Of a stretch of DNA of 64,000 bases, positions 785 through 61,150 are shown in pieces. Under the pieces are notes generated by a model that was not told the origin of the DNA, ran no database searches, and was given only the letters and a program-made list of their open reading frames with translations. The DNA lies in IMG/VR virus record IMGVR_UViG_3300045988_180775; one strand, 5' to 3'. Source of the DNA: a virus. Position numbers and translations under genes: made by a program. How positions within the stretch are numbered: the stretch's first letter is position 1; each line of letters begins with the position of its first letter.

Positions 785-1971
785 GCAACTGTTCCACCGA
801 TGTCATAATCGGACCAGTTGAGGTTCAGCGTCTTTCCGATAAGCTCTTCCAGCTCCAGAACCTTCGCATCGCTCGCACCTGCGTGCTTGGCGTAGGTGGG
901 AATTTGTGCCATGCTCAGGTAGATGTCCAGCGCAGACATACGCGGGGAGTTGATAGCAAAGGTATCAACTTCTTCACGCGCAGGGTCAGCATACTTTCTG
1001 GGGATTTTCAGGTAGGAGCAGATGCCAACGAGGCAGTTGACGGGATTGGAAATTTCCATGCTTCCCATCTTCTGCATCATTGCTGCGCCATCCTCAAACA
1101 GCGCATACAGTCCGCCCGCTTCGTCCTCAAATTTCTCCAGGCCGTACTTCCCTGCCGCCTGCTTCTTGTGCTCGACACGGATTCCCTTTCCAATGGCAAA
1201 GGAGAAGGAACCGCCGGGGGACATCAGCTTCGGCATCAGAATCGCCGAACTGGTCGCCGTGTCGCTGGTAGACAGACGGACAACAGGAACCCAGTTGATG
1301 GCGTGATTCCGAGAGACTGCGTTCGACAGCGCCTTCTGGTACTTATCAATGAGTTCGTCTCGGACGTCGGGCAACTCCCAGACAGCGCTGGTATAGCTAT
1401 GGGAATTGAACCCTTCCTTGAACTTCGGGACGCCGAATCGGTTGTTCAGCTTCTCCTTCGTGATACGGACCAACTCGCTGATGCGCATAATGGCGTAACC
1501 GTCGGATGCGCCGCTGTGCAGCGCGGACAGTTTGCCATAACGCAGCAGGAGAAGCCCGTTTCCCTTGGCATACCGCAGAGCGATATTCAAGCACTGCGCA
1601 AGGTCGGCAAACCCTTCCGCTTTCACCATGTTCGCATTGGCGGGGCCAATCAAACCGGCGGTGGTGTAGAGTGTCGCACGACCGGTATCACGCAGGCACC
1701 AGGTTGTGCCCTGATACTGAACCATGAGGTTCGTACCGTAACCACCATGCAAATCGTTGACGGCGGTATCATGTGCCGTATCATGGTCAACGCCATACTT
1801 TGCCACAGCGTCCGCTACGAACATCGGCCCATCCAGAGGAATGACCTGAAGCTCTTTGCGAGGGATTTCGGGGAGCCACTCGCTGTTGTTTTCCATGTCC
1901 CGGATAGAGTCGATAAATTCCGACTCGTCATGGAACATTTCTTGGAAATCGTCAAAAATCTTGCTGCTCAT
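775..1971 (-). CDS. hypothetical protein (398 aa), first gene after cassette copy 1
   Basis: Long minus ORF, balanced composition, conserved RBS AAAAGGAGAAATGAAAAA immediately upstream of ATG. No recognisable motif. Confidence 0.6.
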   Translation of the reverse strand: MSSKIFDDFQEMFHDESEFIDSIRDMENNSEWLPEIPRKELQVIPLDGPMFVADAVAKYGVDHDTAHDTAVNDLHGGYGTNLMVQYQGTTWCLRDTGRATLYTTAGLIGPANANMVKAEGFADLAQCLNIALRYAKGNGLLLLRYGKLSALHSGASDGYAIMRISELVRITKEKLNNRFGVPKFKEGFNSHSYTSAVWELPDVRDELIDKYQKALSNAVSRNHAINWVPVVRLSTSDTATSSAILMPKLMSPGGSFSFAIGKGIRVEHKKQAAGKYGLEKFEDEAGGLYALFEDGAAMMQKMGSMEISNPVNCLVGICSYLKIPRKYADPAREEVDTFAINSPRMSALDIYLSMAQIPTYAKHAGASDAKVLELEELIGKTLNLNWSDYDIGGTVAWK

Positions 1972-2146
1972 TTTTTCATTTCTCCTTTTCGTGAATTATT
2001 AGGTGATATATAAAAGCCAGTATCCGCAAGGGATACTGACTGAACTTTCTTTATGTATGTGATACTTCCTTTGTATGGTCTCAGCATACCGGCGGATGAA
2101 GAAAACGCCTTATTCTCCTTTCAAGAACCCAAGAACCGAGGAACTT
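1972..2146 (-). promoter_or_regulatory. conserved intergenic cassette copy 1 (GAACC repeats, hairpin A, hairpin B, U tract, conserved TIR)
   Basis: Shares about 120 bp near-identity with six other intergenic copies. Hairpin B 2018-2038 (cagtatcc/ggatactg), hairpin A 2073-2089 (gtatg..catac), GAACC x3 at 2124-2144. Confidence 0.7.
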
Positions 2147-2678: not shown

Positions 2679-4433
2679 TCAGGGGTTTGCGGCAAAAAGC
2701 AGGTTACTGATTTCTCCGCACACAGCGTAGATGCCGGCGGTATCTTTCTTTCCGCTGGCTCCGGAGGTAAGTACGACCACGCCGCAGCCCGTGTCAGGAT
2801 TGTAGCACATGAGGTTGTACGCACCGTATGCGCTGCCGGTGTGATAGAACAATCTGCTCTGCCCATAGGTATTGGCTCGCAGACGCAGAGGCTGGCACTG
2901 GTAGAATCCGCCGGACACAGCCTTATCGCCGTGTGACTCCAATGTGGAGACGATGGACGGAGAAAGGTATTGTGCGCCCTCGTATTTGCCATCACCGGCA
3001 AGCAACGCCACAATTTTTCCAAGGTCGTAGGCGCTGATGGTGAGTCCGCCTGCGAATCCACTGCCGTCCGTACCGGGCAGTTCGTCATCAATAGCCTTGA
3101 GCATTTCCTGGTAGGACAGGCCCGTGCTGCCATCGGCACGGTAGAGCACCGCCAGTTTTTTCGTATCGGATACACTCCCTGTTCGGAATGCCGCGTCGAT
3201 GGACAGTGGACGGTAGAGGTAATGTCCAAGCAGCTCGTCCATCGTGCAGCTGTTTGCTCGCTCGACCGCAAGCCCCAGTGCAGAGAAGGCGTAGTTGTTA
3301 TACAGCCAGTTTTCCAAGTTGCCGGAACAGACCTCGCGTGTCGCAGACGAAGACATGAGTCGCGTCTTCATCCCCTCATAGCTTCTTGATACATCCTCCG
3401 GTGCCCTGAGAGAAGATGTATGTGTGAGAACGGAACGGACTGTAATGTGGTCTCCTTCCTGTGCTTTGTGGATGGGAAAACCGAGGTAGGTGTCCAGCTC
3501 TGTATCGAGAGTCATCGTTCCTTCTTCTGCGGAAAGGCTCGCTGCCATACCAACAAGCACTTTTGAGATGGATGCAGCCCGAACTTTCGTATCTGCTGTC
3601 ATGGCTGATACTCCGCGAACCGCCTCTCCATACGCAAAGGTATCTGATACATGGCCGTCCTTAATGTACGCAATCGACAGACCGACCGCACCGTACTTTT
3701 TTGCAATCGCATTGATTCTGTTTTGCAACGCTGCGTGCTGTTCTGTGGCCTGCACCACGGCTGACGCCGGGATTGTCCGGACAACAGGTCCGTTATTCTG
3801 GAGCCAGCAGCCGAGTGCGAGAATCATATCGACAGCTTCTTTATGATTCATCGTGCCTTTCGGCTCGAATCCTTTTTCTGAAGCGGTCAGGATGCCGTTC
3901 TCCATGCACCATTTCACAGCTCTTCTCGCGTAAAGCGGGACCTGCGCGGCGTCAGCGCACGCAAGCAGCGTGCGGGATGAAAGCGGAGCGGCGTCACAGC
4001 CCATCGCCTTCGCCAGACGGGCAGCCATCACAGCGGCCTCATTCCGTGTCAGCGGTGTGTCCGGCTCCAGTACGCCGGCCGCCGTGCCATTTATGATTCC
4101 GTTTGCCTTTGCCCAGCTCACCTGAAGCGCGTAGTATGCGTTCTCCGGAACATCGGGGAACGATGTGCTCTGAACCGTATCAAGCTCCGGGTTTGCGAGG
4201 TTCACCAGCATGGTCAGGAACTGCGCCCGTGTGGTCTTACCTTCTGTCTCAAGCATTTCTTCCAGGATACCGTCCGGCACGCCGGCTTCAAGACTCTGAG
4301 TCGGCTCAGTGTTATACGTTGCGTCTCGCACCTCCGTATCGGTCTCAAATTCTAATGCTGCGGAGCTTGGCGTCGCGAAAAGCAGCAGCAAAAAAGCCGC
4401 AGCAAATGCGGTAAATTTTCTTTTCACGTTCAT
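2679..4433 (-). CDS. secreted SLH-domain serine hydrolase, beta-lactamase/PBP4 family
   Basis: N-terminal signal peptide (MNVKRKFTAFAAAFLLLLFATPSSA). SLH-like repeats (FPDVPENAYYALQVSWAKANGI...LTRNEAAVMAARL). Serine hydrolase motifs SISK (SxxK) and YNN. Confidence 0.75.
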   Translation of the reverse strand: MNVKRKFTAFAAAFLLLLFATPSSAALEFETDTEVRDATYNTEPTQSLEAGVPDGILEEMLETEGKTTRAQFLTMLVNLANPELDTVQSTSFPDVPENAYYALQVSWAKANGIINGTAAGVLEPDTPLTRNEAAVMAARLAKAMGCDAAPLSSRTLLACADAAQVPLYARRAVKWCMENGILTASEKGFEPKGTMNHKEAVDMILALGCWLQNNGPVVRTIPASAVVQATEQHAALQNRINAIAKKYGAVGLSIAYIKDGHVSDTFAYGEAVRGVSAMTADTKVRAASISKVLVGMAASLSAEEGTMTLDTELDTYLGFPIHKAQEGDHITVRSVLTHTSSLRAPEDVSRSYEGMKTRLMSSSATREVCSGNLENWLYNNYAFSALGLAVERANSCTMDELLGHYLYRPLSIDAAFRTGSVSDTKKLAVLYRADGSTGLSYQEMLKAIDDELPGTDGSGFAGGLTISAYDLGKIVALLAGDGKYEGAQYLSPSIVSTLESHGDKAVSGGFYQCQPLRLRANTYGQSRLFYHTGSAYGAYNLMCYNPDTGCGVVVLTSGASGKKDTAGIYAVCGEISNLLFAANP

Positions 4434-7664: not shown

Positions 7665-8210
7665 TCAGTTCCAGCAGAGATTCCTGATTTCGCGGTCAGA
7701 CAGACCAATCGTTCCATCCAGCATCTCCGTCAAGAACTCATACTGCTCGTCGCCAGTCATGCGGTCGGCATACTCCAAAACATTGTGGATAATGCGACCC
7801 GCCGTGCCGTCGATGTCGAAGTTGTTCAGAAGCCACTCGTAAGTGCCTTCGAGGCCGCAGGCTTCAGTCTCCTCGTCATCTGTGTCGGCGTTGCCATTTT
7901 CAAGAGCGTCAGCAAGGTCGTTGAGCATCTCTTGGATGGCGTCAGCGTCTTCCACCAACGTCTTGATGTCTGGCACACCACTCACGCTGCCCTGCGCATC
8001 GACCAACATCTTGACGTGTTCCTCGGTATCGAAGCTGTCCGCGTAAGAACGGACTTCGGCTGCAAGACTCTCGGCGTCAGATGCGTCTTTCGTCAGAACC
8101 GTGAAGGAGAAATCTTCCCCCGCCGGACTGCACTGGTTAAATTCGATGCTATCGCTGTCCATATCGACTGCCCATCCGTAGCTTTCTGCAATTTGAATCA
8201 TTTTTTCCAT
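7665..8210 (-). CDS. acidic hypothetical protein (181 aa), first gene after cassette copy 2
   Basis: ORF with conserved cassette TIR AAAAAGGAGAATTAAAAAATG. Confidence 0.55.
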   Translation of the reverse strand: MEKMIQIAESYGWAVDMDSDSIEFNQCSPAGEDFSFTVLTKDASDAESLAAEVRSYADSFDTEEHVKMLVDAQGSVSGVPDIKTLVEDADAIQEMLNDLADALENGNADTDDEETEACGLEGTYEWLLNNFDIDGTAGRIIHNVLEYADRMTGDEQYEFLTEMLDGTIGLSDREIRNLCWN

Positions 8211-8381
8211 TTTTTAATTCTCCTTTTTTGAAATTTTTTTGATATATAAAAGCCAGCATCCGTATGGACGCTGACTGAATTTTCTTTGTGTTTGTGATAC
8301 TTCTTTTGTATGGTCTCAGCATACCGGCAGGCACGGAAAACTCCGCATTTTGCAAATTGGAACCTAAGAACCGAGGAACCT
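8211..8381 (-). promoter_or_regulatory. conserved intergenic cassette copy 2
   Basis: Hairpin B cagcatcc/ggacgctg at about 8256-8275, hairpin A 8309-8325, GGAACCTAAGAACCGAGGAACC at 8359-8380. Confidence 0.7.
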
Positions 8382-11458: not shown

Positions 11459-12205
11459 TTATGCAATTTGGAAATCGGCGTTTTTTACATAGTCTTCCGC
11501 TTTCTTCTGAAGCTGGTTGACCTTGCAAATCACGTTCTCCTCGTCGTCGATATCCTCGTAACTGCTGTCACAGCCGTCTACCACATTACCGTTTGCGGCA
11601 ATGTAGAGCGTATCGAAGGAAATGCTATCGTACTCCGTAGAGTAATCCGTTACCAGCTCGTCCATGTCGGTCCTGAGCACCTCCGGTGCTCTTACGCCGA
11701 TGCCGTTCTTGTTGGCACGGCCGGTATTGAGCAGCCAATTCAAATCGTCATCCTTGACCGAATGCTTTTTACCCCGGCCGAGGAAGGACAAGCCTCTCAG
11801 AATTTTCGCGTTGTCGTTGTCGCGGAACGCCTCGTGGAACATATCCACAGAGACATCGACCTCGCACATATCTGGCTCTTCCATCTTAGGATATGCCTCC
11901 AGCAGCGTCAGCGCGAGGTCGCGCATCTGCTCCTTCGACGCCGCTCCGTTGGTGGCAACGTAGAAAGAATTCGGCATCGTACCGTAACGCTCCGCAAGTT
12001 CAAAGTATCGCTTGATGGCCGGCACATTCAAAGATGGCTCGCCGCCCGTGAAAGTGACGGAACTGGGATAGATGTGCTTGGCGATTTCCGATAAGGTGGC
12101 TGTTGAAATGTCCAGATTCTGCGCATCTCCGCGCAGGCAGTGCTCGCATTTCATGTTGCAGCGCCGCGTGACCTCAATGACGAGGGACTCTACATGAATC
12201 TCCAT
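11459..12205 (-). CDS. radical SAM enzyme (CxxxCxxC; QueE/NrdG/viperin-like core)
   Basis: CNMKCEHC cluster motif at residues 16-23 and TFTGGEPSL glycine-rich SAM motif. First gene after cassette copy 3. Confidence 0.8.
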   Translation of the reverse strand: MEIHVESLVIEVTRRCNMKCEHCLRGDAQNLDISTATLSEIAKHIYPSSVTFTGGEPSLNVPAIKRYFELAERYGTMPNSFYVATNGAASKEQMRDLALTLLEAYPKMEEPDMCEVDVSVDMFHEAFRDNDNAKILRGLSFLGRGKKHSVKDDDLNWLLNTGRANKNGIGVRAPEVLRTDMDELVTDYSTEYDSISFDTLYIAANGNVVDGCDSSYEDIDDEENVICKVNQLQKKAEDYVKNADFQIA

Positions 12206-12385
12206 TTTTCATTTCTCCTTTTTTGTGATGGTTATGTGATATATAAAAGCCAGCACCCACGCGGACGCTGACTGAACTTTCTTTATGTTTGTGATACTTC
12301 CTTTGTATGGTCTGAGCATACCGGCGGAAGTGGAAAATGCCACATTCACCTTCCAAGAACCTGAGAACCGAGGAACTGGAGAACT
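12206..12385 (-). promoter_or_regulatory. conserved intergenic cassette copy 3
   Basis: Hairpin B cagcacccacgcggacgctg, hairpin A gtatggtctgagcatac, GAACCTGAGAACCGAGGAACTGGAGAAC at 12358-12385. Confidence 0.7.
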
Positions 12386-14693: not shown

Positions 14694-15392
14694 TCAGTCA
14701 CGCCAGTATGCGCCGTCTTTCGCTTCGCCCTTCGGGAAAACGGTATACTCTGTTCCGTGCAGCACGATGTACTCATGGTCCAGAACATTGGCAGAATCTC
14801 CAACGTCAATGGTCTGAATGTTGAATACCTGCTTTGTGTCCAGACAGACATCTGCCTTTGTCGCCGCAATGCAATTTCCGCCGTCCCAAACGGAGACATA
14901 AGGGATGTTGCGAACGATGGAAGGCTCTTCCTCAGTGCTCTGCTCAGCTTTCTCCAGAGCTGCCCGTACCTCGCCAATCTGCCAAGAAGGCATCAACGGG
15001 AATCCGGCTCTCGTATAGAGACCGCCGCCCGCCTCCGCCTTCTCCAAGGCGGCCTTTGCGGCGTCCTCGGATGCGAAGATGGTGTACTGGCTGACCTCGA
15101 TACCGGGCAAGTAGGAAAACGTCTTCGTTTTACCATCAGAGCATTCGACTTCGGTCATTCCCGAATAGGCAACGCCCGTCCAGCCAAACCAACCGGGTTC
15201 CACAAATTCGGAGAAGGTCACAGTAGACACCGTTACTTTTACGACCGCCAACTCTCTCGTGGACGGACGATACAGCCGACCGTATTTGTTGACTTTCTGC
15301 TTAAAGGTGATTGCGTACACCTCGGAGCCAATGCCGATGGGAACGCCGTCAGCAGTCTTGCACGCTGGTAAGAGATATGCCTTGTTCTTCAT
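14694..15392 (-). CDS. hypothetical protein (232 aa), first gene after cassette copy 4
   Basis: ORF with conserved TIR AAAAAGGAGAAACGAAAAAAATG. Confidence 0.55.
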   Translation of the reverse strand: MKNKAYLLPACKTADGVPIGIGSEVYAITFKQKVNKYGRLYRPSTRELAVVKVTVSTVTFSEFVEPGWFGWTGVAYSGMTEVECSDGKTKTFSYLPGIEVSQYTIFASEDAAKAALEKAEAGGGLYTRAGFPLMPSWQIGEVRAALEKAEQSTEEEPSIVRNIPYVSVWDGGNCIAATKADVCLDTKQVFNIQTIDVGDSANVLDHEYIVLHGTEYTVFPKGEAKDGAYWRD

Positions 15393-15570
15393 TTTTTTCG
15401 TTTCTCCTTTTTGTTTATGAAATTTTTATATATAAAAGCCAGCATCCGCAACGGACGCTGACTGAACTTTCTTTGTGTTTGAGATACTTCTTTTGTATGA
15501 TTTCAGCATACCGGCAGAAGAGAAAAAATCACCTATTTCCTGATGGAGAACCTAAGAATATGAGAACTCG
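15393..15570 (-). promoter_or_regulatory. conserved intergenic cassette copy 4
   Basis: Hairpin B cagcatccgcaacggacgctg, hairpin A gtatgatttcagcatac (variant), GAGAACCTAAGAATATGAGAAC at 15545-15568. Confidence 0.65.
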
Positions 15571-17070: not shown

Positions 17071-17442
17071 TCAAGCTGCCATCTGGTACAGCCATGCTTC
17101 AAAGTCTTCATAGTCCATCAGCCGTCCATCCACCTCGACGAATCCAGGCTGCGTTGTGCCGCGAACAACGGAAAAGGAATCTCCGCCGCCACAGAAAACG
17201 CGAATGTTCGTTCTGGAGATGCTCTCGCAGCGCAAGAAATACGAGCCGAGGCGTTCCCAAATTCGGGACATCTCCTCGTCGGTCGCTTCCCAACTGCGGT
17301 TTTGGCTGGTACGGACCTTTGTTGCGGATACGGACAACTCAACCTGCTCCGTATCTTCCGGCAGCCCAAGCTCCGCGCAGACCTCTTTCCACTTTGTTTC
17401 GTCACCGAAACCCCTCTTAAACATCATTGCTTTCATGTTCAT
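17071..17442 (-). CDS. hypothetical protein (123 aa), first gene after cassette copy 5
   Basis: ORF with conserved TIR AAAAAGGAGAAATGAACATG. Confidence 0.5.
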   Translation of the reverse strand: MNMKAMMFKRGFGDETKWKEVCAELGLPEDTEQVELSVSATKVRTSQNRSWEATDEEMSRIWERLGSYFLRCESISRTNIRVFCGGGDSFSVVRGTTQPGFVEVDGRLMDYEDFEAWLYQMAA

Positions 17443-17606
17443 TTCTCCTTTTTGTTTATGAATTTTTTATATATAAAAGCCAGCATCCGCAACGGACGCT
17501 GACTGAACTTTCTTTGTGTTTGAGATACTTCCTTTGTATGCTCTGAGCATACCGGCAAATATGGAAACACGCCTATTTTAATGTTGGGAACCTGAGAACC
17601 GAAGAA
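17443..17606 (-). promoter_or_regulatory. conserved intergenic cassette copy 5
   Basis: Near-identical to copy 4. GGGAACCTGAGAACCGAAGAATAC at 17586-17609. Confidence 0.7.
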
Positions 17607-17680
17607 TACATATCGTCACGCGCAATGTCCGCTTCACGCTGGCGGAACTGCTCGATTGGATTTAAGAAACGGAGAATAGC

Positions 17681-17713
17681 AAAAAAACGCCGCCCATCTG
17701 GGCGGCGTTTCTT
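17681..17713 (-). terminator. rho-independent terminator after sigma gene
   Basis: aaaaaaacgccgcccatctgggcggcgtttctt. On minus strand the stem is followed by TTTTTTT. Confidence 0.75.
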
Positions 17714-18680
17714 ATTCAAGAAAGTCCTGAAGCATCTTCCCTGCCTTTCCGTTGCGTAGCTTATCGAGTGTTTTATCTGTAACCTGACGGACACGCTCTC
17801 GCGTTAAGTCCATTTCGTCCCCGATTTCTTTGAGGGTATAAGCACAACCATCCTCCAATCCGAATCGTAAGCGAAGCACACAGGCGTCTCGTGCGGGCAT
17901 ATCGTGCAGGATTTTGTCCATCGTTTCCCATAGTGCCTTCCCTGACGTTGAAATTTCCGGGTTATCCCACTCGTTATGGCTTGGGATGAATTCCGAAAGC
18001 GGTGTGTTGGAATCGCTTGCGGCGTCCGAATTGACGGGCGCATCCAACGAGTCCGGCTTCCGGTACTGGAGCGAGTGTTGGATGATGCGCAGTTTTTTCT
18101 GCTGCTCCCTTTTTGAAAGGGAATCCCACGCATCCCCCTCCATGTATTTTGCGATTTCTAAAGGGTCATCACAAGGTAAGCCTTTTTGCTGCATTTGTTC
18201 TTTTGCATTATTGACGCTCCGCCTGCCCTCCGCAACATAGATGGGCTTGCGAATGGCTGGGTCCGTCGTGGCAAGTGCTCTTGTGATGTTTTGCCTTATC
18301 CAGAAGGTTGCGTAGGTGGAGAACTTCACATTCCTCGAAATGTCAAAAGAGTCGATGGAACGCATGAGGCCGATGTTGCCCTCCTGAATGAGGTCCATGA
18401 ACACCATAGAATCGGCTGAGTTTATATATTTCTTTGCGATGGACACAACAAGCCGAAGATTGCCCTCAACAACCTTATCTTTCGCCCGTCTTCCTGCTTC
18501 TATGGCCTTCATCAGGTCTTTCTCGATTTCGGGGTCAACTGCATTCCCACTCTCCTCGGCAATCACCCGCAGCGTTTCGAGCTGTTCGGCAGCGGCATTC
18601 CCCTTCTGCGCTTTTTCAATACAGCGATTCGCTTCTACCTGCGGCATAATGGGGATGCTGCCAATTTGGCTGAGATACAT
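17712..18680 (-). CDS. RNA polymerase sigma-70 family factor (regions 1.2, 2, 3, 4), element-encoded
   Basis: DLIQEGNIGLMRSIDSFDISRNVKFSTYATFWIRQNITRALA (region 2.1-2.4). YTLKEIGDEMDLTRERVRQVTDKTLDKLR (region 4.2 HTH). VAMYLSQIGSIPIMPQ (region 1.2). Track start 18884 is a TTG inside the promoter -35, so I trimmed to ATG 18680 (GTG 18686 also possible). Confidence 0.85.
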   Translation of the reverse strand: MYLSQIGSIPIMPQVEANRCIEKAQKGNAAAEQLETLRVIAEESGNAVDPEIEKDLMKAIEAGRRAKDKVVEGNLRLVVSIAKKYINSADSMVFMDLIQEGNIGLMRSIDSFDISRNVKFSTYATFWIRQNITRALATTDPAIRKPIYVAEGRRSVNNAKEQMQQKGLPCDDPLEIAKYMEGDAWDSLSKREQQKKLRIIQHSLQYRKPDSLDAPVNSDAASDSNTPLSEFIPSHNEWDNPEISTSGKALWETMDKILHDMPARDACVLRLRFGLEDGCAYTLKEIGDEMDLTRERVRQVTDKTLDKLRNGKAGKMLQDFLE

Positions 18681-18855
18681 CGCCACATGGTCGCCGATAT
18701 TTCCCGGCTGCTTCGCTTCGGTCTCCTGTTCATTCGAAGCTGCGATTTCTTCTGTTTCAGGCTGCTTTTCAATGGCTTCATAGGCAAGCGCACGGTCAGC
18801 GGCTAAATTACTGGTATTCGTGATGTCAACCACCCCCCCTTCATTGAATGCAGCA

Positions 18856-18884
18856 ATTATACCACACAATAGCTTACTTGTCAA
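18856..18884 (-). promoter_or_regulatory. sigma-A-type promoter (TTGACA-17-TGGTATAAT) upstream of sigma gene
   Basis: Minus strand TTGACAagtaagctattgtgTGgTATAAT. Member of a 7-copy promoter family. Confidence 0.65.
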
Positions 18885-19440: not shown

Positions 19441-19956
19441 TTATACCTCCAAAATTTCGATTCCGTACTTTTCCAACATAAGTTTGCGCTTCATGAGGTA
19501 CTTTTCGGTTCGTTTTCCCTTCGCGTCTTCCACGATACGCTCACCGTTGCGGAGATAGACGAAATCTGCCTTGTAGACCATTGGTCGAACCCGCTTGCCA
19601 TTTGGCCGTGTATAGCCCTCGACCAGCGTGAAGTCCTGCTGGAGCCGCAGGTCCTGGATTGCACCAACCTTGTACTGCAAATACAGTTCATCGAAGCGCC
19701 GTGCCTCCCGCTTGCTGGGGAATTTCACGGTTTCTCCATCCACCACGCGAATGACCTTTTTATTGCGATATTTGGATGGCTCAGCAGCGTCCGCTTCTTT
19801 CGGCTGTTTTTGCCTTTTCTGTGCTTCCGGCTGTTTTTTTGCTCGCTGCTGTTTCTGCTCGTCGAGCTTTGCACGCACCTGAATCTGTGCGGAAAGCGGC
19901 AGGCTATTGATGTCAATACCCACCTTCAGTTCCTCCGCCTGTTTGTGGCGCAGCAT
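19441..19956 (-). CDS. DUF1064-family phage protein (putative nuclease/resolvase-like)
   Basis: C-terminal YRNKKVIRVVDGETVKFPSKREARRFDELYL...DFTLVEGY...YKADFVYL...VEDAKG matches the DUF1064 pattern as I recall it. The K/Q-rich N-terminus may be over-called. Confidence 0.55.
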   Translation of the reverse strand: MLRHKQAEELKVGIDINSLPLSAQIQVRAKLDEQKQQRAKKQPEAQKRQKQPKEADAAEPSKYRNKKVIRVVDGETVKFPSKREARRFDELYLQYKVGAIQDLRLQQDFTLVEGYTRPNGKRVRPMVYKADFVYLRNGERIVEDAKGKRTEKYLMKRKLMLEKYGIEILEV

Positions 19957-20311
19957 TTTGGTTGCTTCCTTCTCGCAGCAGAATCAAATTCATGACCCTC
20001 CATACCGTCCAGATACACAGATGGCGAACTATGCTTCTGCTGGTGCCGTGCAGGTCGGCGATTTGCGAAAACGTCATTCTGTCACGAAAATACTTTTGGA
20101 CGATATCGCGGTTTCGCTCAGGAAGTGTGTCCAGCGCTTCATCGAACATCTCGTTAAAGCCCGGTGTAAATGAAATTTGATTCTTACCCCAGGCTGAAAT
20201 TTGATTTTTACACCAGGCAAAGGATGTATCGTACATAATGGCCGCCTTCCGCCACTCCTCCGGGGCGAACTCAGGCTTGTTAATCTTGTCTGTCGTTTGT
20301 TTCTTTGTCAT
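19913..20311 (-). CDS. small sigma-70 region-4-like HTH protein (132 aa)
   Basis: LPERNRDIVQKYFRDRMTFSQIADLHGTSRSIVRHL resembles sigma region 4/ECF HTH. Trimmed to ATG 20311 with RBS GGAAGGAGAAACAAAA. Contains a 24-bp tandem duplication (20171-20218). Confidence 0.45.
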   Translation of the reverse strand: MTKKQTTDKINKPEFAPEEWRKAAIMYDTSFAWCKNQISAWGKNQISFTPGFNEMFDEALDTLPERNRDIVQKYFRDRMTFSQIADLHGTSRSIVRHLCIWTVWRVMNLILLREGSNQNAAPQTGGGTEGGY

Positions 20312-21404
20312 TTTTGTTTCTCCTTCCAACAATCTCTCTTCGTGAGCTGCGCCACAGCATGAGCAGCATCTCGCTGACCGGTCTGGTTCGGTCCTTCCTC
20401 ACGGCTTTCCTCACGCATCGCAGATGCCCGCCGTCCGGGCAAAGCACACCGACGCCGTATGGCACAGTATCCTTCACCGCTTCGAAGACGTCTGCGGGCA
20501 TAACGTAGTAGTTGTAGTCCGCGATGAAGTTGTGCCCGTTAGGAGATTTGAAATCCTCCACAGAGGACTTGACCTCGTAGGCGTAGAAGTCCCCCTTCTC
20601 AATGCCGGAGGTCGAATTGTTGAGCGGCTGAAAGCGCATATAGTCCACGCGGATTTTGTGGTTCGTAGAGTAGTCGAATGTGACCTCTCTCGCCCAGTAG
20701 ATGCGTGGGTCGTTGCGCGGGTCGATGTATCGCTCCAGCATGGCAGAGAGCTGGCGAGTGTGTTCCTTCCGGGTGAAGGCATCACTCGTTTCCGGACAGA
20801 ATTGAGCTGGCTTTCCAAGGATGAAATGGAACGGCAGAGCCTTTTCCAGTACGTCGATAATATTCTGAAGGGTCCCCTGCCCGCATTGGCGCAGATTCTT
20901 CAGTTTGCCGCTCTCTATCAGTCGAACAACATCGCCGATACTTTGGGCACCACTGAACATAAGGCAGTTCTTGGTGCGAGTCGAGAAATTGAGGCACTGA
21001 AACGGAACAGAATCGCACAACTCCTCGATTTTTTTCCGGTTGCCATTCTCAATGGCTTCCTTCAAAGCAGAGGCGAGAGGGCTGCCTGCAAACCGGCGCA
21101 TTTCTTTCAGGATACCCCCCGCATATTTGGGGTGACGCAGCCTCCTTATGGCGAGGTCGAAGCAAGAGTGGAACTTGCCGATGTCAATTTCCAGTGCGTT
21201 TGCGCATTGTGTTGGTGTAAGACCGTCGCGGTAGCGTTTTAAGATAGCTTCCCGCTCCAACTCAGGGAATGTGGCGATGGCAGCGTCTACAGCTGCGTCG
21301 AAAGAGTCGGAGAACTCAGCACACGGCATACACAAGCAATCCTGCATCAAATTCTTTCGCCATTCTACTGACGAGCGAAGCAGGAAACGCTCCTCAGTGT
21401 TCAT
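20280..21404 (-). CDS. three-part protein: sigma region-4-like HTH, then RNAP alpha-CTD-like helix-hairpin-helix, then C-terminal PD-(D/E)xK-like domain
   Basis: EREAILKRYRDGLTPTQCANALEIDIGKFH (region-4-like). LNFSTRTKNCLMFSGAQSIGDVVRL...LKNLRQCGQGTLQNIIDVL (alpha-CTD-like). GDFYAYEVKSSVEDFK (D..E.K nuclease-like). Confidence 0.55.
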   Translation of the reverse strand: MNTEERFLLRSSVEWRKNLMQDCLCMPCAEFSDSFDAAVDAAIATFPELEREAILKRYRDGLTPTQCANALEIDIGKFHSCFDLAIRRLRHPKYAGGILKEMRRFAGSPLASALKEAIENGNRKKIEELCDSVPFQCLNFSTRTKNCLMFSGAQSIGDVVRLIESGKLKNLRQCGQGTLQNIIDVLEKALPFHFILGKPAQFCPETSDAFTRKEHTRQLSAMLERYIDPRNDPRIYWAREVTFDYSTNHKIRVDYMRFQPLNNSTSGIEKGDFYAYEVKSSVEDFKSPNGHNFIADYNYYVMPADVFEAVKDTVPYGVGVLCPDGGHLRCVRKAVRKDRTRPVSEMLLMLWRSSRREIVGRRNKNDKETNDRQD

Positions 21405-25867: not shown

Positions 25868-25897
25868 TGCAGCGCACCCCCGAACTTTTATATTTAC

Positions 25898-25926
25898 ATT
25901 ATACCACACATTAGCTTGATTGTCAA
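25898..25926 (-). promoter_or_regulatory. sigma-A-type promoter (TTGACA-17-TGGTATAAT) for helicase
   Basis: Minus strand TTGACAatcaagctaatgtgTGgTATAAT. Confidence 0.65.
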
Positions 25927-26102
25927 TTCGTTTCAGAAAAGCTAAGCGCCCCAAGACAAGGAGCGCTTGGCTTGCTGGCTGACGTCTACTGCTTCTCAAT
26001 ATAGCCGCTGACAGGCTCTGCGTACATATTGTCGTCTGTGACAGGCTGGTAGCTTTGGGTTTTCAAACACAGTATATCACATAGAATTTTGTGTGCAAAT
26101 AG

Positions 26103-30439: not shown

Positions 30440-30474
30440 TGGAAAATCACATCCTCCGTTTACTTTATGCTTAT

Positions 30475-30503
30475 ATTATACCACACATTAGCTTAAAAGT
30501 CAA
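30475..30503 (-). promoter_or_regulatory. sigma-A-type promoter (TTGACT-17-TGGTATAAT) for ung
   Basis: Minus strand TTGACTtttaagctaatgtgTGgTATAAT. Confidence 0.65.
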
Positions 30504-30536
30504 TTTAATGCGTAGGGAAAACGGCCTTCGCGTGAT

Positions 30537-32743: not shown

Positions 32744-32776
32744 TATGTATTACCTCCAGTTTTATTTTGTAAATAT

Positions 32777-32805
32777 ATTATACCACATAACACCTTGCAA
32801 GTCAA
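32777..32805 (-). promoter_or_regulatory. sigma-A-type promoter (TTGACT-17-TGGTATAAT) for flotillin gene
   Basis: Minus strand TTGACTtgcaaggtgttatgTGgTATAAT. Confidence 0.65.
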
Positions 32806-32897
32806 TTTTGCATAGAAGAAGACAGGTGAGACGCTGAACACGTCCCACCTGTCTGCCCAAACGATATAACTTCAATCGTGTGCAGCCTTTGCACGTC

Positions 32898-38766: not shown

Positions 38767-41259
38767 TCAGCGCCTGAAGGCAGCGCAAGTACGCTTCTGC
38801 TCAATTCGGCGCTTCGCAGCGGCTCTTGCTTTGGGGTCAGTCGTTATCAGGTATTCTTCCGTATCCGTCGCCTTAACATTGATGAAAATGTGGTTCTCAT
38901 TTGCGGTCAGGAGACAGGTTCCACGGTCCATGGTTTTTACACGCTTGAGTTCTTCGTCGGTCAGACCAATCGCATCCGCAATCGCGTTTGCTTCCTCTTT
39001 TTCGCTGCGCAAAATCATTTTGATTTTGGCGTTTCCAATGATGGCGGTGCCAATTCCCGCAGAGAAGAAGTCTGCGATATTCTGCGTGGCAGCGACGGCG
39101 CTTCCGCCGAAGCCTCGGATAGTACGGAAGATTTCGACCACGAAATTGGCGGCTTCGATAGGTGCATCGGAGCAGACCAAGCGCCAAGTCTCGTCAATGA
39201 AAACACACTTGTTGACGTTCCGATTTTCTTTGCATTTATCCCAAACATAATCCAATGCAAGGAACATAGCCACAGGAAGAAAGTCTTTCTGCGCATCGGA
39301 AACATCCAGCACTACGAACTTGTTGTTAAGGTTCACATTGGTTTGCGCGTTGAACGAAGATGCAGAACCTGTGGTGTATCGCGTCAGCAAACGGCACAAA
39401 CGATTTGCTGGTGCGCCCATCTTTTCCAGCTCGGAATATACGTCCGAAAGGATAGGCATTTTGCGGTATTTCTTCTTGTCGTTGGGGTCCAACAGGCTCT
39501 TGTTCTTATGGGTAATTCCGAAATTGCCGTAAGTTTTCAGCAGCGCGTCATCCACATACTGCACCTCTTCTGGCGTCATGTCCGGGATAATCAGCTTAAA
39601 GAAAATGAGAAGCTGCTGGATTTTCTGTGCCAAAATCGAGCCGGAAGTGACCAACGCACCATCGTCATCGTAGACGTTGCCCTCTTCCTTCTTGCGTATC
39701 TCCATGATATTGATATTCTGTCCGGAACCGGGTTTGATTTCAATGAAACTGCCCCCAACCTTCTCACAAAGCGGCAGGAACTCCTTGCCTTTCAGCGGCG
39801 CGATAATGAAGGTTTGAACCCCCTTCTCCCGCATTCTCAATGCCAGAACCTGCGTGGTGAAGGTCTTACCGGAGCCAGAGGAGCCGACAATATTGATGTT
39901 GGCATTGATATATTGCTGGCGGTCGAAGAAGTTGACCAGAACCGGTGATTTGAACACATCATCCACGCCCAGCATCACGCCGTCCTTATCGCACAGCTCG
40001 GAAGATGTGAACATATAGGTGGACGCAAAATCGGAACACAGAATATTTCTGCGGCTCTTACGGAATAGGTTTTTGTCATACTCACATACGGGAATGGTGG
40101 AGCGAAACGCTTCTGCTTGCTGGAAAGTACAAGGTTTAAGAGTCAATTCTCTCTCAATGAAAATGCGCCGGATTTCCTTGAATTTGTAGTCAATTTCTCG
40201 CTCGCTTTCACCTGTAATAGTGAGCATTGTAGACATATAGGCAAATTCGTCGCCGGCCGCGAGAGAGCTTTTCAGATAGTATCCTGCGTCCACCGCAGCC
40301 TTCACATCATCGTAGTCGCTACTGGTGGTTTCTGTGTTGCGGAAGCGCATTGCATTGAACCGCAGGCCATGATGCAGTGCAGTTTGAATCTTCTCCGGTG
40401 AAATCTTCTGAAGCCAAACATCCACATCAATCCCCTCCCCCAGTCCTGCCAGCAGCTGCATCCAGCCGCCAAGAACGCGCACAGGATAGGCATTGCTCGG
40501 AAGATAGCAGCACATATAGTAGATGCCATCCACGATGATATATCGGGGACTTGACTCCGTATCAATGCAGTACGGAGCAAGCACATCATTGACAGGAAGA
40601 TGCGCCGCGCTATCTCGCGTGAAGTCGATGTTTGCCGCCGTATATCGGGCAACAACATCCGCCATTCTCTCGTCAAACGGGTGGTTCGCGCTCTGTGCTC
40701 TGGACATGATATCGTAAAGCGTGGAAAGCACATAGACGTCATCGTGAGGCCTTGAAATCATAATGTTGCCGCAGGCCCGAAGGTTGCTTCTGATGGCGTC
40801 CTCCTGTCTCGTAATGGTGCTTCTGATTTCATTCCATGATGGTGAACGATGTGCGAATCCCTCTTCTTCCTCGTACTGGAATGCGAGAAAGAAGCGACGG
40901 GATACGCCTTGCGATGTGCCAAATTCTGACATCATGTCGATTTGCTCCCGCATCAGTTCACGGGTTCCTTCATTCTTTTCATGGCGCACACTTTCCACCA
41001 TGCCGGAAATATAGTGTTCGACATTTGCGCGATTGGACAGAACTTTGATTTGGACAACGCTTGGAAACGAGCGGATTGCGGCCGCATATTGTGCCGTAAT
41101 CATGTTCTTATCCTCGTTCGACCGTAAGCCGTAGTTAATGGGAGAGAACTCCATCAACTTCACAAATTTCCCGTCTTTCGTGACGATGATGCCGTCACGA
41201 ACATCGCTTATGGGCGAGAAAGATTGGCAGCTTATCACCTGTTTCAGTTTTCTGGACAT
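38767..41259 (-). CDS. T4SS VirB4/TrsE/TcpF-family conjugative ATPase
   Basis: Walker A IVGSSGSGKTFTTQ, Walker B CVFIDETW, about 830 aa. Typical size and position in Gram-positive conjugation loci. Confidence 0.9.
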   Translation of the reverse strand: MSRKLKQVISCQSFSPISDVRDGIIVTKDGKFVKLMEFSPINYGLRSNEDKNMITAQYAAAIRSFPSVVQIKVLSNRANVEHYISGMVESVRHEKNEGTRELMREQIDMMSEFGTSQGVSRRFFLAFQYEEEEGFAHRSPSWNEIRSTITRQEDAIRSNLRACGNIMISRPHDDVYVLSTLYDIMSRAQSANHPFDERMADVVARYTAANIDFTRDSAAHLPVNDVLAPYCIDTESSPRYIIVDGIYYMCCYLPSNAYPVRVLGGWMQLLAGLGEGIDVDVWLQKISPEKIQTALHHGLRFNAMRFRNTETTSSDYDDVKAAVDAGYYLKSSLAAGDEFAYMSTMLTITGESEREIDYKFKEIRRIFIERELTLKPCTFQQAEAFRSTIPVCEYDKNLFRKSRRNILCSDFASTYMFTSSELCDKDGVMLGVDDVFKSPVLVNFFDRQQYINANINIVGSSGSGKTFTTQVLALRMREKGVQTFIIAPLKGKEFLPLCEKVGGSFIEIKPGSGQNINIMEIRKKEEGNVYDDDGALVTSGSILAQKIQQLLIFFKLIIPDMTPEEVQYVDDALLKTYGNFGITHKNKSLLDPNDKKKYRKMPILSDVYSELEKMGAPANRLCRLLTRYTTGSASSFNAQTNVNLNNKFVVLDVSDAQKDFLPVAMFLALDYVWDKCKENRNVNKCVFIDETWRLVCSDAPIEAANFVVEIFRTIRGFGGSAVAATQNIADFFSAGIGTAIIGNAKIKMILRSEKEEANAIADAIGLTDEELKRVKTMDRGTCLLTANENHIFINVKATDTEEYLITTDPKARAAAKRRIEQKRTCAAFRR

Positions 41260-42218: not shown

Positions 42219-43472
42219 TCAGGCGTTGGGGAAATTCATGGGGCCTTGGGTGCCGATGCACCGGCACAGAATCATCCCGTTGTCCAAATAATTAAGAACC
42301 TTCAGCCGGACGGTCGAACCACGCGGAGGCTCGCTCCCAAGGAATTTCGCAGGCATATTGTTCACGAGTACGGGTAAATCGTACATCTTGATATACGCCA
42401 ACACATTGATATTCCCAGGCTGTTTCTTACTCGCAGCCACGGAAGATACGATGCCAAACACGATGGAGCCGATTGGAAGAGCGCTGCGCATTTGCTTCGC
42501 ACGCTCCAACTCAGGCTGCTTACAGTTCACCTCGACGATGTGGTGGCCGTCTTTCTCTTTGATGATTTGCTCTACCTGAACCATAATTTCCTGCCCCACC
42601 TTGTATTTGGTTCTCGCGTCAACAAGGTACTCGAAAGTCAGGGCGTGGAGCGGCACCCGCGTATCGACTCCGCCAACCACAACGGCAATGCTGTCGCGTG
42701 CCACAGAGGTAATCTGAGCACGAACAAAATCGCCTTCCTGAATGCGCGGGCCATCACCGTCAGGTCGGTCTCCGTAATTTGTCTCCTCAATAATGTCGAG
42801 CGCAGCCTTACGGGACGCGACAATGACATAAGCCGGAACTCCGGCTTCAGCATCGGTGCTTTCATCGACCTGGATAGTCGTAATCACCATCGGCACATTC
42901 AGGGAATACAGCTTTGCCGCCATCGTAGCGCAGCGGTTGACGTACTCTTCACGACCGGCCTTAGTTTCCATATTTACCGTCGCCATATCAATGGGATTCT
43001 TCTGGTAGAACTCGTCAAAGGGAATGGAAACCTTGTAGCGGCCCTCTACGAGCGCGATAATCATGACACAGGGAACTTCCGAATCCACATCGTTTCGCTG
43101 CTCGATATGAGAGACGAGACCATTTACGATGCTGTGGTTTTTAGCTGCGACTGTCAATGAAGAAAGTCCGATAAGAAACTCCTGATAGGCACGGACAGAC
43201 TCACTTCTTTCCGCTCTCCGCCGTCTTGCCTCCCTCAGTACATCAGCACGGGTAGGCTTCCCTTTGGGAGCGGTTTCCTCCGCGCCGGACTGCTCAGGTT
43301 CGTTTCCATCAAGCCCCTCAAAGAGCGCCTGCATCTCTGCGTCCTCTTCATTGGGGGCCTGCGTTTCAACGCTCTCTGCGGTGGAGGATTGGACGTTGCT
43401 CTGTTCCTCAGTGGGAGCCTGCACTTCAGCGTTTTCCTCGATTGAAGCAGTTGCTCCATCTTTTTTGACCAT
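42219..43472 (-). CDS. S1-domain RNA-binding protein (two S1-like repeats) with acidic N-terminus
   Basis: GDFVRAQITSVARDSIAVVVGGVDTRVPLHALTFEY...VGQEIMVQVEQI (S1-like) and a second GSIVFGIVSSV...GSTVRLKVLNYL repeat. Confidence 0.55.
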   Translation of the reverse strand: MVKKDGATASIEENAEVQAPTEEQSNVQSSTAESVETQAPNEEDAEMQALFEGLDGNEPEQSGAEETAPKGKPTRADVLREARRRRAERSESVRAYQEFLIGLSSLTVAAKNHSIVNGLVSHIEQRNDVDSEVPCVMIIALVEGRYKVSIPFDEFYQKNPIDMATVNMETKAGREEYVNRCATMAAKLYSLNVPMVITTIQVDESTDAEAGVPAYVIVASRKAALDIIEETNYGDRPDGDGPRIQEGDFVRAQITSVARDSIAVVVGGVDTRVPLHALTFEYLVDARTKYKVGQEIMVQVEQIIKEKDGHHIVEVNCKQPELERAKQMRSALPIGSIVFGIVSSVAASKKQPGNINVLAYIKMYDLPVLVNNMPAKFLGSEPPRGSTVRLKVLNYLDNGMILCRCIGTQGPMNFPNA

Positions 43473-43524
43473 TGCTATTGCCTCCTTTGCGTAATTTGGG
43501 GCATCTTAATGCCCTACACTTTTA

Positions 43525-43552
43525 TTATTACAACCTTTCGTTCAAAAGTCAA
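43525..43552 (-). promoter_or_regulatory. sigma-A-type promoter (TTGACT-16/17-TAATAAT) for S1-domain gene
   Basis: Minus strand TTGACTtttgaacgaaaggttgTAATAAT. Confidence 0.45.
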
Positions 43553-43629
43553 TTTTTTCGCAGATTTTCAAAAGCAAAAGGCCTATGAACGGAATCCCGC
43601 TCATAGGCCTTCTACTTGCTTTTCAATGA

Positions 43630-44151: not shown

Positions 44152-44176
44152 TGGAATCACCTCTTCTTTACGCTTA

Positions 44177-44205
44177 TATTATACCACACTTTATCTTATT
44201 TGTAA
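44177..44205 (-). promoter_or_regulatory. sigma-A-type promoter (TTTACA-17-TGGTATAAT) for signal peptidase
   Basis: Minus strand TTTACAaataagataaagtgTGgTATAAT. Confidence 0.6.
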
Positions 44206-44293
44206 AGTATCGAATGAAGTGACCTTACATACAACGGCGCAAGCAAAAAGGCACGTCAACGAAATGTTGGCGTGCCTGTGGCCTGTGCTGATA

Positions 44294-55610: not shown

Positions 55611-56558
55611 TTAAACTCCTTCCTTCTGCCGCGCCAGATACTCCTGACGTTCGGCCTCCTTTTTGTTCTCTCCTTCGATGATGACGGGGATGCACATGGC
55701 ATTCTCCCACGTTTCGATGAAGCGTGTTACGCGATACATCATGCGGTACATATCGCGGTCAGAAACCTGGATAAATACCTCCACCTTGTTTCGCATGGAT
55801 TTTCCGTCGAATGTCGTGGCCCCGGTCGCCTGTTCAATCACCTTGGCCTCGCCGTTGGTGATTTTCAGGACCCAAGGATACATTGCAAGGTCTCCGTCCT
55901 GACGAACGCTGTCATGCGTGACTGTCAGCATAGACACCGGCGCAAATCCGTCCGTGCCTTTCTTGTAGGTATTGACCTTGGACATGGCATACTGGTAGTC
56001 CATTCGGTTCGGAAATTTGAGCGCAGTCCCAACGTCCGCATCCGCGATAGCAGTACGGGCTTCTTTCAGAACTGTGCCGGCTGCCATGAGGATATCCTTC
56101 TTTTCTGCTCCCTTAACGGCCTTGGCCACAATGCTTACGCTCTTGCTCAGAAGACTGCCATAAGCCTTTGCAACGCTGGCAGTGCGATGAATCGACTTCA
56201 TCAGACCATTGACAGCATTGGGGGCCAAAACAGTCTCCCAGGGCTTCTGCGCATCCTTCGCGACACGTCCAATCAGCGGAACAGCCATCGTACCGACATT
56301 GCAGCGGCAAACGGTGAGCCATTCGTCGAACATGGTCGGGTCAATATTCACAGAACAGGTGACACTTTTATCGCCCGTTCCCTTCGTGAAATCACAGATG
56401 ACCATTTCGATGACAGAGGGAAAGGTCTTTCCTCCATTTTTCTTGCCGCCAGACTGGTGCATCATCGCATACTCGTCAGGCAGCGACCGGCTCAGCTTGT
56501 CGCGAAAGTCAACGACTTTATCCTTGCCGTTACACTTGGTAATCACATTTGTTACCAT
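55611..56558 (-). CDS. hypothetical protein (315 aa), first gene after cassette copy 6
   Basis: ORF with cassette TIR GTAAGGAGAATCAGAAAAAATG. Confidence 0.55.
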   Translation of the reverse strand: MVTNVITKCNGKDKVVDFRDKLSRSLPDEYAMMHQSGGKKNGGKTFPSVIEMVICDFTKGTGDKSVTCSVNIDPTMFDEWLTVCRCNVGTMAVPLIGRVAKDAQKPWETVLAPNAVNGLMKSIHRTASVAKAYGSLLSKSVSIVAKAVKGAEKKDILMAAGTVLKEARTAIADADVGTALKFPNRMDYQYAMSKVNTYKKGTDGFAPVSMLTVTHDSVRQDGDLAMYPWVLKITNGEAKVIEQATGATTFDGKSMRNKVEVFIQVSDRDMYRMMYRVTRFIETWENAMCIPVIIEGENKKEAERQEYLARQKEGV

Positions 56559-56750
56559 TTTTTCTGATTCTCCTTACTTGTTATTTTTTGATTTATATAA
56601 AAGCCTGCGCCCGTTGGGTGCAGACTGAACTTTCATTATGTTTGTGATACTTCCTTTGTATGGTCTCAGCATACCGACCTTTTTCTCGCTTACAGAATTG
56701 CGCTGTGCAGGAATACAGGTTCTTAGGAATAGAAGTACCTAAGAACCAAA
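56559..56750 (-). promoter_or_regulatory. conserved intergenic cassette copy 6 (contains perfect 10-bp palindrome)
   Basis: Hairpin B ctgcgccc/gggtgcag (entirely different arm sequence, pairing preserved). Hairpin A gtatggtctcagcatac. GGTTCTTAGG-N10-CCTAAGAACC at 56718-56747. Confidence 0.7.
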
Positions 56751-56763
56751 GAAGGGCAAAAAG

Positions 56764-60959: not shown

Positions 60960-61150
60960 TTTTTCATTTCTCCTTTTTGTTTTGTGTGATTTGGGATATA
61001 TAAAAAGCCAGTATCCGTAAAGGATGCTGACTGAACTTTCTTTATGTTTGCGATACTTCTTTTGTATGGTCACAGCATACCGGCCTTTTTGCCATTTGCA
61101 GAATTGTGATAAACAGGAATACAGGTTCCTGAGTTCCGAGGTGCCTGAGT
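60960..61150 (-). promoter_or_regulatory. conserved intergenic cassette copy 7 (GGTTCC motif in inverted orientation)
   Basis: Hairpin B cagtatcc/ggatgctg, hairpin A gtatggtcacagcatac. CAGGAATACAGGTTCCTGAGTTCCGAGG at 61114-61141, shared with copy 6. Confidence 0.7.

Follow-up and report, generated by a model that had tools for sequence, protein, structure and literature searches.

A covarying, probable RNA stem-loop of terminator-like anatomy upstream of the SD sequence in the repeated cassettes of a predicted conjugative element of Oscillospiraceae

Results

Gene content of the window

The window, by which we mean the whole stretch of 64,000 nt analysed here (IMG/VR record IMGVR_UViG_3300045988_180775), carries all of its long open reading frames on the minus strand. 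Pfam searches identified a VirD4-type coupling protein (44294-46570) and a VirB4-like ATPase (38767-41259), together with matches to a CHAP/lysozyme hydrolase, two T4SS pilin-like proteins, a PrgI-like protein and a signal peptidase; a UvrD-like helicase, a primase-like protein, ERF, UDG and a NERD nuclease are also encoded. The window revealed no genes for capsid, portal or tail proteins, a phage origin was rejected since a megablast search against phages returned no matches, and the 'terminase' matches in PHROG correspond to the P-loops of VirB4 and VirD4. The locus had been regarded as generic or phage-like; judging by its VirD4, VirB4 and pilin genes, it is instead a conjugative element of Oscillospiraceae and not a phage. 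The window yielded neither a relaxase nor an oriT. The sole match in a cultured genome lies on a 570-kb contig of an Oscillospiraceae bacterium, the carrier isolate being CM18GR_63 (JAWQDX01), which indicates that the element can be integrated, and the other matches, among those listed, are human-gut metagenome and IMG/VR 'viral' contigs of 27-159 kb; the 159-kb contig, ERZ835980.36, is an example of a complete element. VirD4 shares 33-36% identity with its closest annotated plasmid proteins (Vescimonas, Subdoligranulum and Clostridium), and a search of PLSDB with the cassette described below gave no match. The same conjugation genes and cassettes occur in IMG/VR contigs L001-L042 (e.g. IMGVR_UViG_3300029584_000162, 136 kb), with no virion genes in the parts examined; the 'viral' label, of the window as of these contigs, is probably wrong, and the contigs would be misclassified conjugative elements. 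Within the T4SS block, the largest ORF (881 aa, 49353-51998) encodes a membrane-anchored protein with no family match and contains two tandem repeats of 83-90 nt, 76% identical, at 49633-49805.

Organization of the cassette and the genes that it precedes

A cassette of ~140 nt is present in exactly seven copies in the window (a 30-nt core pattern gave seven matches, with none expected), and about 15-20 co-oriented copies are found per element. Each cassette directly follows a strong terminator of the preceding operon. Its 5' edge is formed by Box1, three or four GGTTC (or TATTC) units with a period of 8 nt (14 matches against 1.85 expected), located on the minus strand in copies 1-6 (2124-2145, 8359-8381, 12356-12385, 15547-15568, 17587-17608 and 56710-56748) and inverted, on the plus strand, in copy 7 (61124-61144); one unit is also inverted in copy 6. 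Due to the inversion in copy 7, Box1 looks like an orientation-independent protein-binding DNA site rather than a -35 box. Box1 is followed by 30 variable nucleotides within which AAT and TTTTCC are conserved, by an almost invariant core (GCCGGTATGCT-N5-CATACAAAGGAAGTATCAC...TTCAG), by a hairpin, hereafter hairpin B, and by TTTTATATA; a variable A-rich spacer, a strong SD sequence and the start codon complete the 3' end, hairpin B being positioned 20-30 nt upstream of the SD. Copy 1 (1969..2145, minus strand) extends from Box1 to the ATG of a 398-aa ORFan: the GGTTC repeats (2124-2145) and the variable segment are followed by the core GGTATGCT..CATACAAAGGAAGTATCAC (2061-2090), hairpin B, GGCTTTTATATAT, ~20 A-rich nucleotides, the SD AAAGGAGA (1981-1987) and the ATG (1969-1971). 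The core, e.g. at 2061-2090 on the minus strand, also displays three almost invariant GTAT/ATAC motifs (GGTATGCT, CATAC and AGTATC) spaced 11-13 bp apart. A possible core RNA helix, GUAUGCU/AGUAUCAC, in which G.U is replaced by A-U in a G-to-A variant, is almost invariant and hence uninformative, and these motifs could form an RNA helix or, equally, a DNA site.

The genes located downstream of the cassettes are mostly ORFans, and searches of PDB, PADLOC and PHROG with the proteins that they encode gave mostly no matches. The recognizable ones are a radical-SAM gene below copy 3; a small ORF followed by a pair encoding a MoxR/CbbQ-type AAA+ ATPase and a VWA (CobT-like) protein below copy 7 (59000-60751, minus strand); and, assigned to copy 6, an operon with an uncharacterised 315-aa gene, an ERF single-strand annealing protein and a primase-like gene (56792-58933, minus strand). 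A given downstream gene can stand behind cassettes that differ in Box1 type and hairpin allele, and vice versa (e.g. L056, L148, L137 and L132 compared to the window); the cassettes are recombination junctions and seem to promote the shuffling of gene modules between positions and elements. In related elements (L129, L020, L091 and L017) the homologue of a 99-aa gene is preceded by a cassette with a weakened hairpin, AGCCAGTATTC/AGATACTTGCT, carrying a C.T mismatch. In the window, the cassette is absent (2635-2700) before this 99-aa gene (2335-2634), upstream of which lies a gene for an SLH and beta-lactamase-fold protein (2679-4433).

Hairpin B is found in every cassette of the window

Positions 2018-2038 of the plus strand, which read CAGTATCCGCAAGGGATACTG, comprise the inner 8 bp and the loop of hairpin B of copy 1, whose complete form, AGTCAGTATCC-CTTGC-GGATACTGGCT, spans 2015..2041 on the minus strand. 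The first-pass annotation had described an 8-bp stem, which proves too short: the flanking AGyC...GrCT extends the stem to 11-13 bp, and that of copy 1 continues outward via AGTC/GGCT to 11 bp. Directly 3' of hairpin B lies the U-rich tail, TTTATATAT in copy 1 (2006..2014, minus strand); UUUUAUAUA occupies this position in each cassette, written TTT(T)ATATA after GrCT in every copy, and the 9-mer TTTTATATA, which takes in the closing T of the stem, is near-invariant across the cassette family. The remaining hairpins, all on the minus strand, are located at 8251..8276 (copy 2, cassette ~8208-8381), 12248..12273 (copy 3, ~12203-12385), 15437..15463 (copy 4, ~15390-15568), 17478..17504 (copy 5, ~17434-17608, directly downstream of a sigma-factor gene and its terminator), 56602..56626 (copy 6, ~56556-56755, with the structure AGTCTGCACCC-AAC-GGGCGCAGGCT) and 61006..61032 (copy 7, ~60957-61144, the cassette with the inverted Box1). 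A search for the module composed of hairpin and TTTTATATA outside cassettes never returned one.

The hairpin noticed at first pass is thus real, with conserved pairing in 7/7 cassettes of the window and in their homologues, and the arms quoted for copies 1, 2, 4, 5, 6 and 7 are correct as readings of the plus strand. The order given there, a stem followed by GGCTTTTATATAT, holds on the minus strand and not on the plus strand, the genes and the cassette being on the minus strand. Likewise, copies 2, 4 and 5 do not contain the single mismatch ascribed to them, since the two bases form G.U when the gene strand is read. Several stable alleles, those of copies 6 and 7 among them, do have an A.C mismatch in the sense orientation, which counts against a leader terminator.

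Covariation of the stem

Scans of sequence collections and nhmmer searches yielded at least 254 cassette matches in 171 sequences (170 fetched loci and the window), the more than 200 added copies being from related gut metagenome, IMG/VR and genome contigs. At least 35 distinct hairpin sequences and at least seven arm alleles were found among them. Besides the base series CAGYRTCC/GGAYRCTG, the arms include CAGCGG/CCGCTG, which is combined with four different loops, CGACGGTT/AACCGTTG, CGGTGCCCCC/GGGAGCRCTG, CGGAGGTC/GACCGCCG, CTGCACCC/GGGCGCAG, CAGCGCCTC/GGGGGTGCTG and CAGTATTC/AGATACTT, while the outer bases AGyC/GrCT are conserved. For the 23 distinct sets of the outer ten pairs, 96.1% of the pair cells are standard pairs, against 23-52% in register-shifted controls, and changes on both sides occur at 6/10 pairs (29 cells), a value matched by none of 500 shuffles. 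RNAalifold independently predicted the same helix. Nevertheless, the copies are paralogues that exchange blocks and both arms travel together, since one downstream gene can be preceded by different hairpin alleles, and the 29 cells consequently represent ~7-10 independent arm alleles rather than 29 events; even so, the covariation is still far beyond chance. These results sustain the earlier proposal that selection acts on the pairing and not on the sequence of the arms, and when the added homologues were inspected for arms varying independently of each other, pairing was found to be kept across the seven or more alleles.

Strand bias of the hairpin

The 35 variants have stems of 9-13 bp, loops of 3-10 nt, a total length of 25-31 nt and folding energies of -11 to -22 kcal/mol. 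In 29 of them the sense-strand RNA folds more stably than the antisense one (mean of -17.1 against -12.9 kcal/mol; Wilcoxon p=1.6e-6, for variants that are phylogenetically non-independent), and G.U outnumber A.C cells on the sense strand by 53 to 10, these counts being equally non-independent. Both biases support the proposed RNA-level element and place it on the transcript-sense strand. In addition, a variation of 6 nt in hairpin length would fit an RNA element better than a DNA promoter part of fixed geometry. An RNA structure of the whole cassette was rejected, as it is no better than that of shuffled sequences, and a local 'hairpin A' (GGTATG/CATACC) was likewise rejected, being broken by a G-to-A variant and by a CAAGCC variant.

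The sense-strand bias and the variable loop length speak against two DNA-level explanations, the second of them in the form of a template-strand promoter. The first is a palindromic operator for a dimeric DNA-binding protein, which would account for an inverted repeat within a regulatory region and for the conserved outer AGyC/GrCT. Nevertheless, at least seven alleles have their arms replaced wholesale with pairing kept, the half-sites would be spaced by anything from 3 to 10 nt, and a G.U type of strand asymmetry, irrelevant to duplex DNA, is observed; the first-pass view that a sequence-specific site is unlikely agrees with these loops and with stems of 9-13 bp, and we consider the operator highly improbable. 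The second is a single-stranded DNA element acting in conjugative transfer, i.e. an Frpo/ssp-type promoter, an ssi/sso-like priming site or a replication roadblock. In its favor, some 15-20 cassettes per element share one orientation on a conjugative host, a primase-like protein is encoded there, and the strand bias is compatible with single-stranded DNA of the sense strand, G.T being the least harmful mismatch in DNA hairpins too. However, the template-strand DNA of the whole cassette folds no better than shuffles (z=-0.65) and only into short local hairpins, so that an Frpo-like long hairpin was rejected and no long hairpin with -35 and -10 boxes is formed; a single-stranded promoter requires the template strand, which folds worse than the sense strand; and the fixed link to the SD and ATG suggests a role in gene expression. 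Such an element is accordingly judged quite improbable.

Promoter placement

A promoter scan of 47 representatives revealed no convincing sigmaA promoter in the cassette. The best sigmaA candidate in Box1, TyGGTT-16-nAnAAT, is weak (at least 8/12 in only 7/47 representatives) and is undermined by the inversion of Box1 in copy 7. The invariant cGgTATGCT of the core resembles the extended -10 TGgTATAAT of a second promoter family of the element, described below; TATGCT has no -35 box, and its only variation, to TATACT, brings it closer to consensus. From this resemblance we infer that cGgTATGCT is the best promoter candidate of the cassette. Readings of the core as sigmaH-, sigmaE-, sigmaK- or sigma54-like promoters were rejected by eye, because spacing or key bases do not fit, and so was an antisense promoter at TATAAA on the plus strand, which has no usable -35.

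A cassette variant lacking the hairpin bears on the same question. It was found at seven loci (L049:4547-4621, L068:941-1015, L112:1106-1180, L124:5181-5255, L147:6189-6263, L152:8002-8076 and L168:12288-12362), where Box1 and the core are kept, CATACAAA of the core reading CTATGCAA or CTATGCGA, and unrelated sequence replaces hairpin B and TTTTATATA. There follow a weak 6-bp hairpin without a U-run, an SD, an ORF of 18 codons and a conserved gene, in which the contigs differ mostly by synonymous changes. Since this variant precedes a gene that varies in such a manner, the promoter probably lies upstream, in the part formed by Box1 and the core, and every placement that we consider viable would leave hairpin B in the transcribed leader.

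A different arrangement would have hairpin B stop transcription arriving from upstream, either read-through or a short cassette RNA made between two terminators, with TATATA as the -10 of a promoter for the downstream gene. TATATA lies 16-22 nt before the SD, like the -10 of the sigmaA-type promoters of the element, its region is conserved beyond U-richness, and there is a weak likeness to Rfam caiA (hairpin, UAUAUAU and SD), which is at chance level only (E=1.7). Against this arrangement, no hexamer within TTTTATATAT has an A at position 2 together with a T at position 6, the TG extension is absent, a -35 would have to lie in the variable loop and arm, nothing was detected at TATATA by the promoter scan, and the hairpin-less cassette has no -10-like sequence before its SD, yet precedes a conserved gene. 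We regard such a junction of terminator and promoter as improbable.

Transcription proteins and a second promoter family

The element encodes its own RpoD-like sigma factor (17712..18833, minus strand), with regions 2 and 4 (Pfam) and the motifs TRERVRQ and YATFWIRQNITR; NCBIfam RpoD models match it at 1e-67, under the cutoff. The list of NCBIfam matches also includes the MZA anti-phage sigma factor MzaA. The promoter that drives its gene is of the sigmaA type and perfect, TTGACA-17-TATAAT with TG (18856..18884, minus strand), and belongs to a second repeated promoter family of near-perfect sigmaA consensus, TTGAC-17-TGtGGTATAAT with conserved flanks. Members of this family (18856-18884, 25893-25929, 30470-30506, 32772-32808, 43519-43555 and 44173-44209, minus strand) stand before the sigma-factor gene and the T4SS/maintenance operons, and the element would thus possess two classes of promoters, each in a block of its own. 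Because TRERVRQ and YATFWIRQNITR match the residues with which primary sigma factors recognize -35 and -10 boxes, this protein probably reads the consensus-type family and not the cassette. The sigma factor is encoded directly upstream of the cassette block, and nearby are a protein with sigma-region-4-like and RNAP alpha-CTD-like parts (20280..21404, minus strand), a candidate regulator of the cassette, and a small region-4-like protein (19913-20311, minus strand). Either of these, the sigma factor or an S1-domain protein (42219-43472) could be a trans-factor for the cassette.

Terminator-like anatomy of hairpin B

The terminator-like anatomy proposed at first pass holds. Hairpin B has the stem and loop size of intrinsic terminators, for which a G+C-rich stem of about 5-14 bp and a short loop are typical, with the U-tract directly at the 3' end of the stem, the T-tract beginning at the last stem base in every copy. 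A d'Aubenton-Carafa-type score is positive in nearly all of 38 variants (median +27.8, minimum -0.8), the operon-end terminators of the element itself scoring from +11.6 to +59.8; the median tail score is 4.57, and 5/7 window copies are among the top sites of a terminator pattern scan. With -11 to -22 kcal/mol and a mean formation probability of 0.94 in the leader context, the hairpin is not particularly weak, contrary to the 'weak' attenuator or terminator first suggested. Rfam 15 gave no match in the window at the gathering score, the best sub-threshold one, caiA, being at chance level (17.2 bits against the 55.5 needed, E=1.7), and no tRNA or tmRNA was found in the window.

The regulatory roles also envisaged at first pass gained less support. 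A riboswitch-type attenuator is not supported, as no conserved alternative (antiterminator) fold was found: the only other helix given by RNAalifold is weak and does not overlap hairpin B. An antiterminator pairing between the loop of hairpin A and the 5' arm of hairpin B was rejected on inspection, no covariation being seen when the arm changes. A put/nut-like role is without support, since covarying structure was seen nowhere else in the leader and the window revealed no protein resembling N or Q; Pfam found no N, Q or NusG-paralogue domain in ~60 of the ~69 predicted window proteins, of an element that extends beyond the window, and no antiterminator protein was identified there. Since no competing fold exists, hairpin B would be constitutive, with relief in trans or partial read-through. 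We tentatively favor, at close to an even chance, a constitutive leader terminator or read-through barrier placed 20-30 nt before the SD of the cassette operons.

One feature counts against termination alone, namely that the tail is kept as TTTTATATA, including its A's, which hints at a second, sequence-specific role. It may be argued that the transcribed hairpin serves another purpose, as a stabilizer against 5'-exonucleases, an RNase processing site or a structural insulator that keeps the AU-rich standby region and the strong SD clear of upstream pairing. The covariation and sense-strand evidence applies equally to such a hairpin, the tail is followed by a conserved, unstructured A/U-rich tract and a very strong SD, the invariant A's of UUUUAUAUA suggest sequence recognition over plain U-richness, and a possible promoter, CATACA-16-CAyAAA, would set the transcription start at the first base of the hairpin. 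On the other hand, the -10 of this candidate falls in the least conserved part of the core, a stem closing directly on a U-run is a specific terminator signature, and the hairpin-less cassette still precedes a gene under purifying selection, so that expression as such does not require hairpin B. We regard a role other than termination as rather unlikely.

Discussion

Proposed mechanism and significance

Based on the comparison of cassettes, we hypothesize that hairpin B and its UUUUAUAUA tail constitute an RNA stem-loop of the intrinsic-terminator type in the 5' leader common to all cassette operons. As the strong terminator of the previous operon directly precedes each cassette, each is likely to need a transcription start of its own; transcription would begin inside the cassette, the best start candidate being the invariant extended -10-like cGgTATGCT, and Box1 (GGTTC x3, at about -60) may act as an activator or operator site. 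RNA polymerase would then meet hairpin B after ~45-95 nt, where most transcripts, as well as read-through from the upstream operon, would end, and the downstream genes would stay low until a trans-acting factor of the element or the host lets the polymerase pass. Transcription from a cassette-internal promoter, termination and relief by any factor are all three steps that we infer from the anatomy of the cassette.

A further-reaching and doubtful possibility is that the ~15-20 modules of promoter, short leader and terminator make up one large regulon run by transcription proteins of the element itself, namely the RpoD-like sigma factor and the proteins with sigma-region-4-like and alpha-CTD-like parts encoded just upstream of the cassette block, with the hairpin as a gate. 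If so, only a polymerase modified or recruited by the element would pass the hairpin, resulting in all-or-none, possibly post-transfer, expression of a rapidly shuffling set of accessory or establishment genes in gut Clostridia; we know of no regulon-wide terminator gate described for conjugative elements. The conjugative elements of gut Clostridia are major and poorly understood carriers of genes, and to our knowledge the timing of accessory and establishment gene expression has been worked out only in a few plasmids of Bacillus and of enterobacteria. The cassette delimits a whole regulon of mostly uncharacterised genes in an element of uncultured-type Oscillospiraceae, and presents a compact control module of operator-like repeat, conserved leader and terminator hairpin. 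Should the hairpin gate transcription, it would show how numerous operons can be silenced and then released together, and the sequence of the cassette could be used to find the cargo genes of the element in metagenomes.

Comparison with known systems

Attenuators based on an intrinsic terminator in the 5' leader include lambda PR'-tR'/Q, the countertranscript attenuation of pT181 and pIP501, and LoaP-controlled leaders. Like these, the cassette has a GC-rich stem closing on a U-run between the promoter region and the SD, and short leader transcripts are expected unless termination is relieved. In contrast to them, it displays no conserved alternative fold and no obvious antisense promoter, the window yielded no gene for Q, N or a NusG paralogue, the module heads many operons, and the tail is an invariant UUUUAUAUA rather than a variable U-run. 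The Frpo/ssp single-stranded DNA promoters of F-like plasmids are hairpins of at least 100 nt in which the folded template strand re-creates -35 and -10 boxes. Both are structured repeats in one orientation upstream of genes of a conjugative element (early ones in F-like plasmids), but the hairpin described here has only 25-31 nt, forms best on the non-template strand and has no boxes in its stem. A third parallel is provided by the sRNA genes located between dual terminators in the rrn operons of E. coli (PMC8144298), which share with the cassette a conserved ~100-nt segment between an operon-end and a second terminator in multiple near-identical copies; here, however, the second terminator always precedes an SD and a gene, and there is no sign of a stable sRNA.

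The establishment-gene regulatory sequences EGeRS1 and EGeRS2 were described in the pLS20 family (pLS20 and p576) of Bacillus conjugative plasmids (Val-Calvo et al. 2018, 2021; PMC6294495, PMC8708921). EGeRS1, which includes inverted repeats, is devoid of a constitutive sigmaA promoter and acts as an orientation-dependent block to read-through, an effect that in pLS20 resides in its 3' part, directly upstream of the RBS, while EGeRS2 consists of a promoter with adjacent direct-repeat operators (PMC8708921). Similarly, the cassette is a conserved non-coding repeat just upstream of the RBS of several operons in a Gram-positive conjugative element, and its downstream genes are variable, mosaic and mostly without known function; the window holds T4SS genes and seven copies, each after a terminator and before an SD. 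Box1 is comparable to the direct-repeat operators of EGeRS2, and the control of ERF, primase-like, MoxR/VWA and radical SAM genes is at most suggestive of an establishment function, most of the controlled genes being ORFans. The differences are nevertheless considerable. The EGeRS2 operator motif TTATCCCnnTTATCCC is absent, Pfam found no RHH protein, the class of the Reg repressor, in the window, and EGeRS2 has a strong sigmaA promoter, unlike the cassette; no other feature points to homology. Compared by description, the cassette has ~140 nt and one dominant hairpin, whereas EGeRS1 is 420-750 nt long and GC-rich with many hairpins. Moreover, the host belongs to the Clostridia (Oscillospiraceae), with many more copies and an RpoD-like sigma factor of its own. 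As size, structure and operator motif differ, the cassette would not be a member of the EGeRS, which are the closest known concept, and is better seen as resembling a compact version of them.
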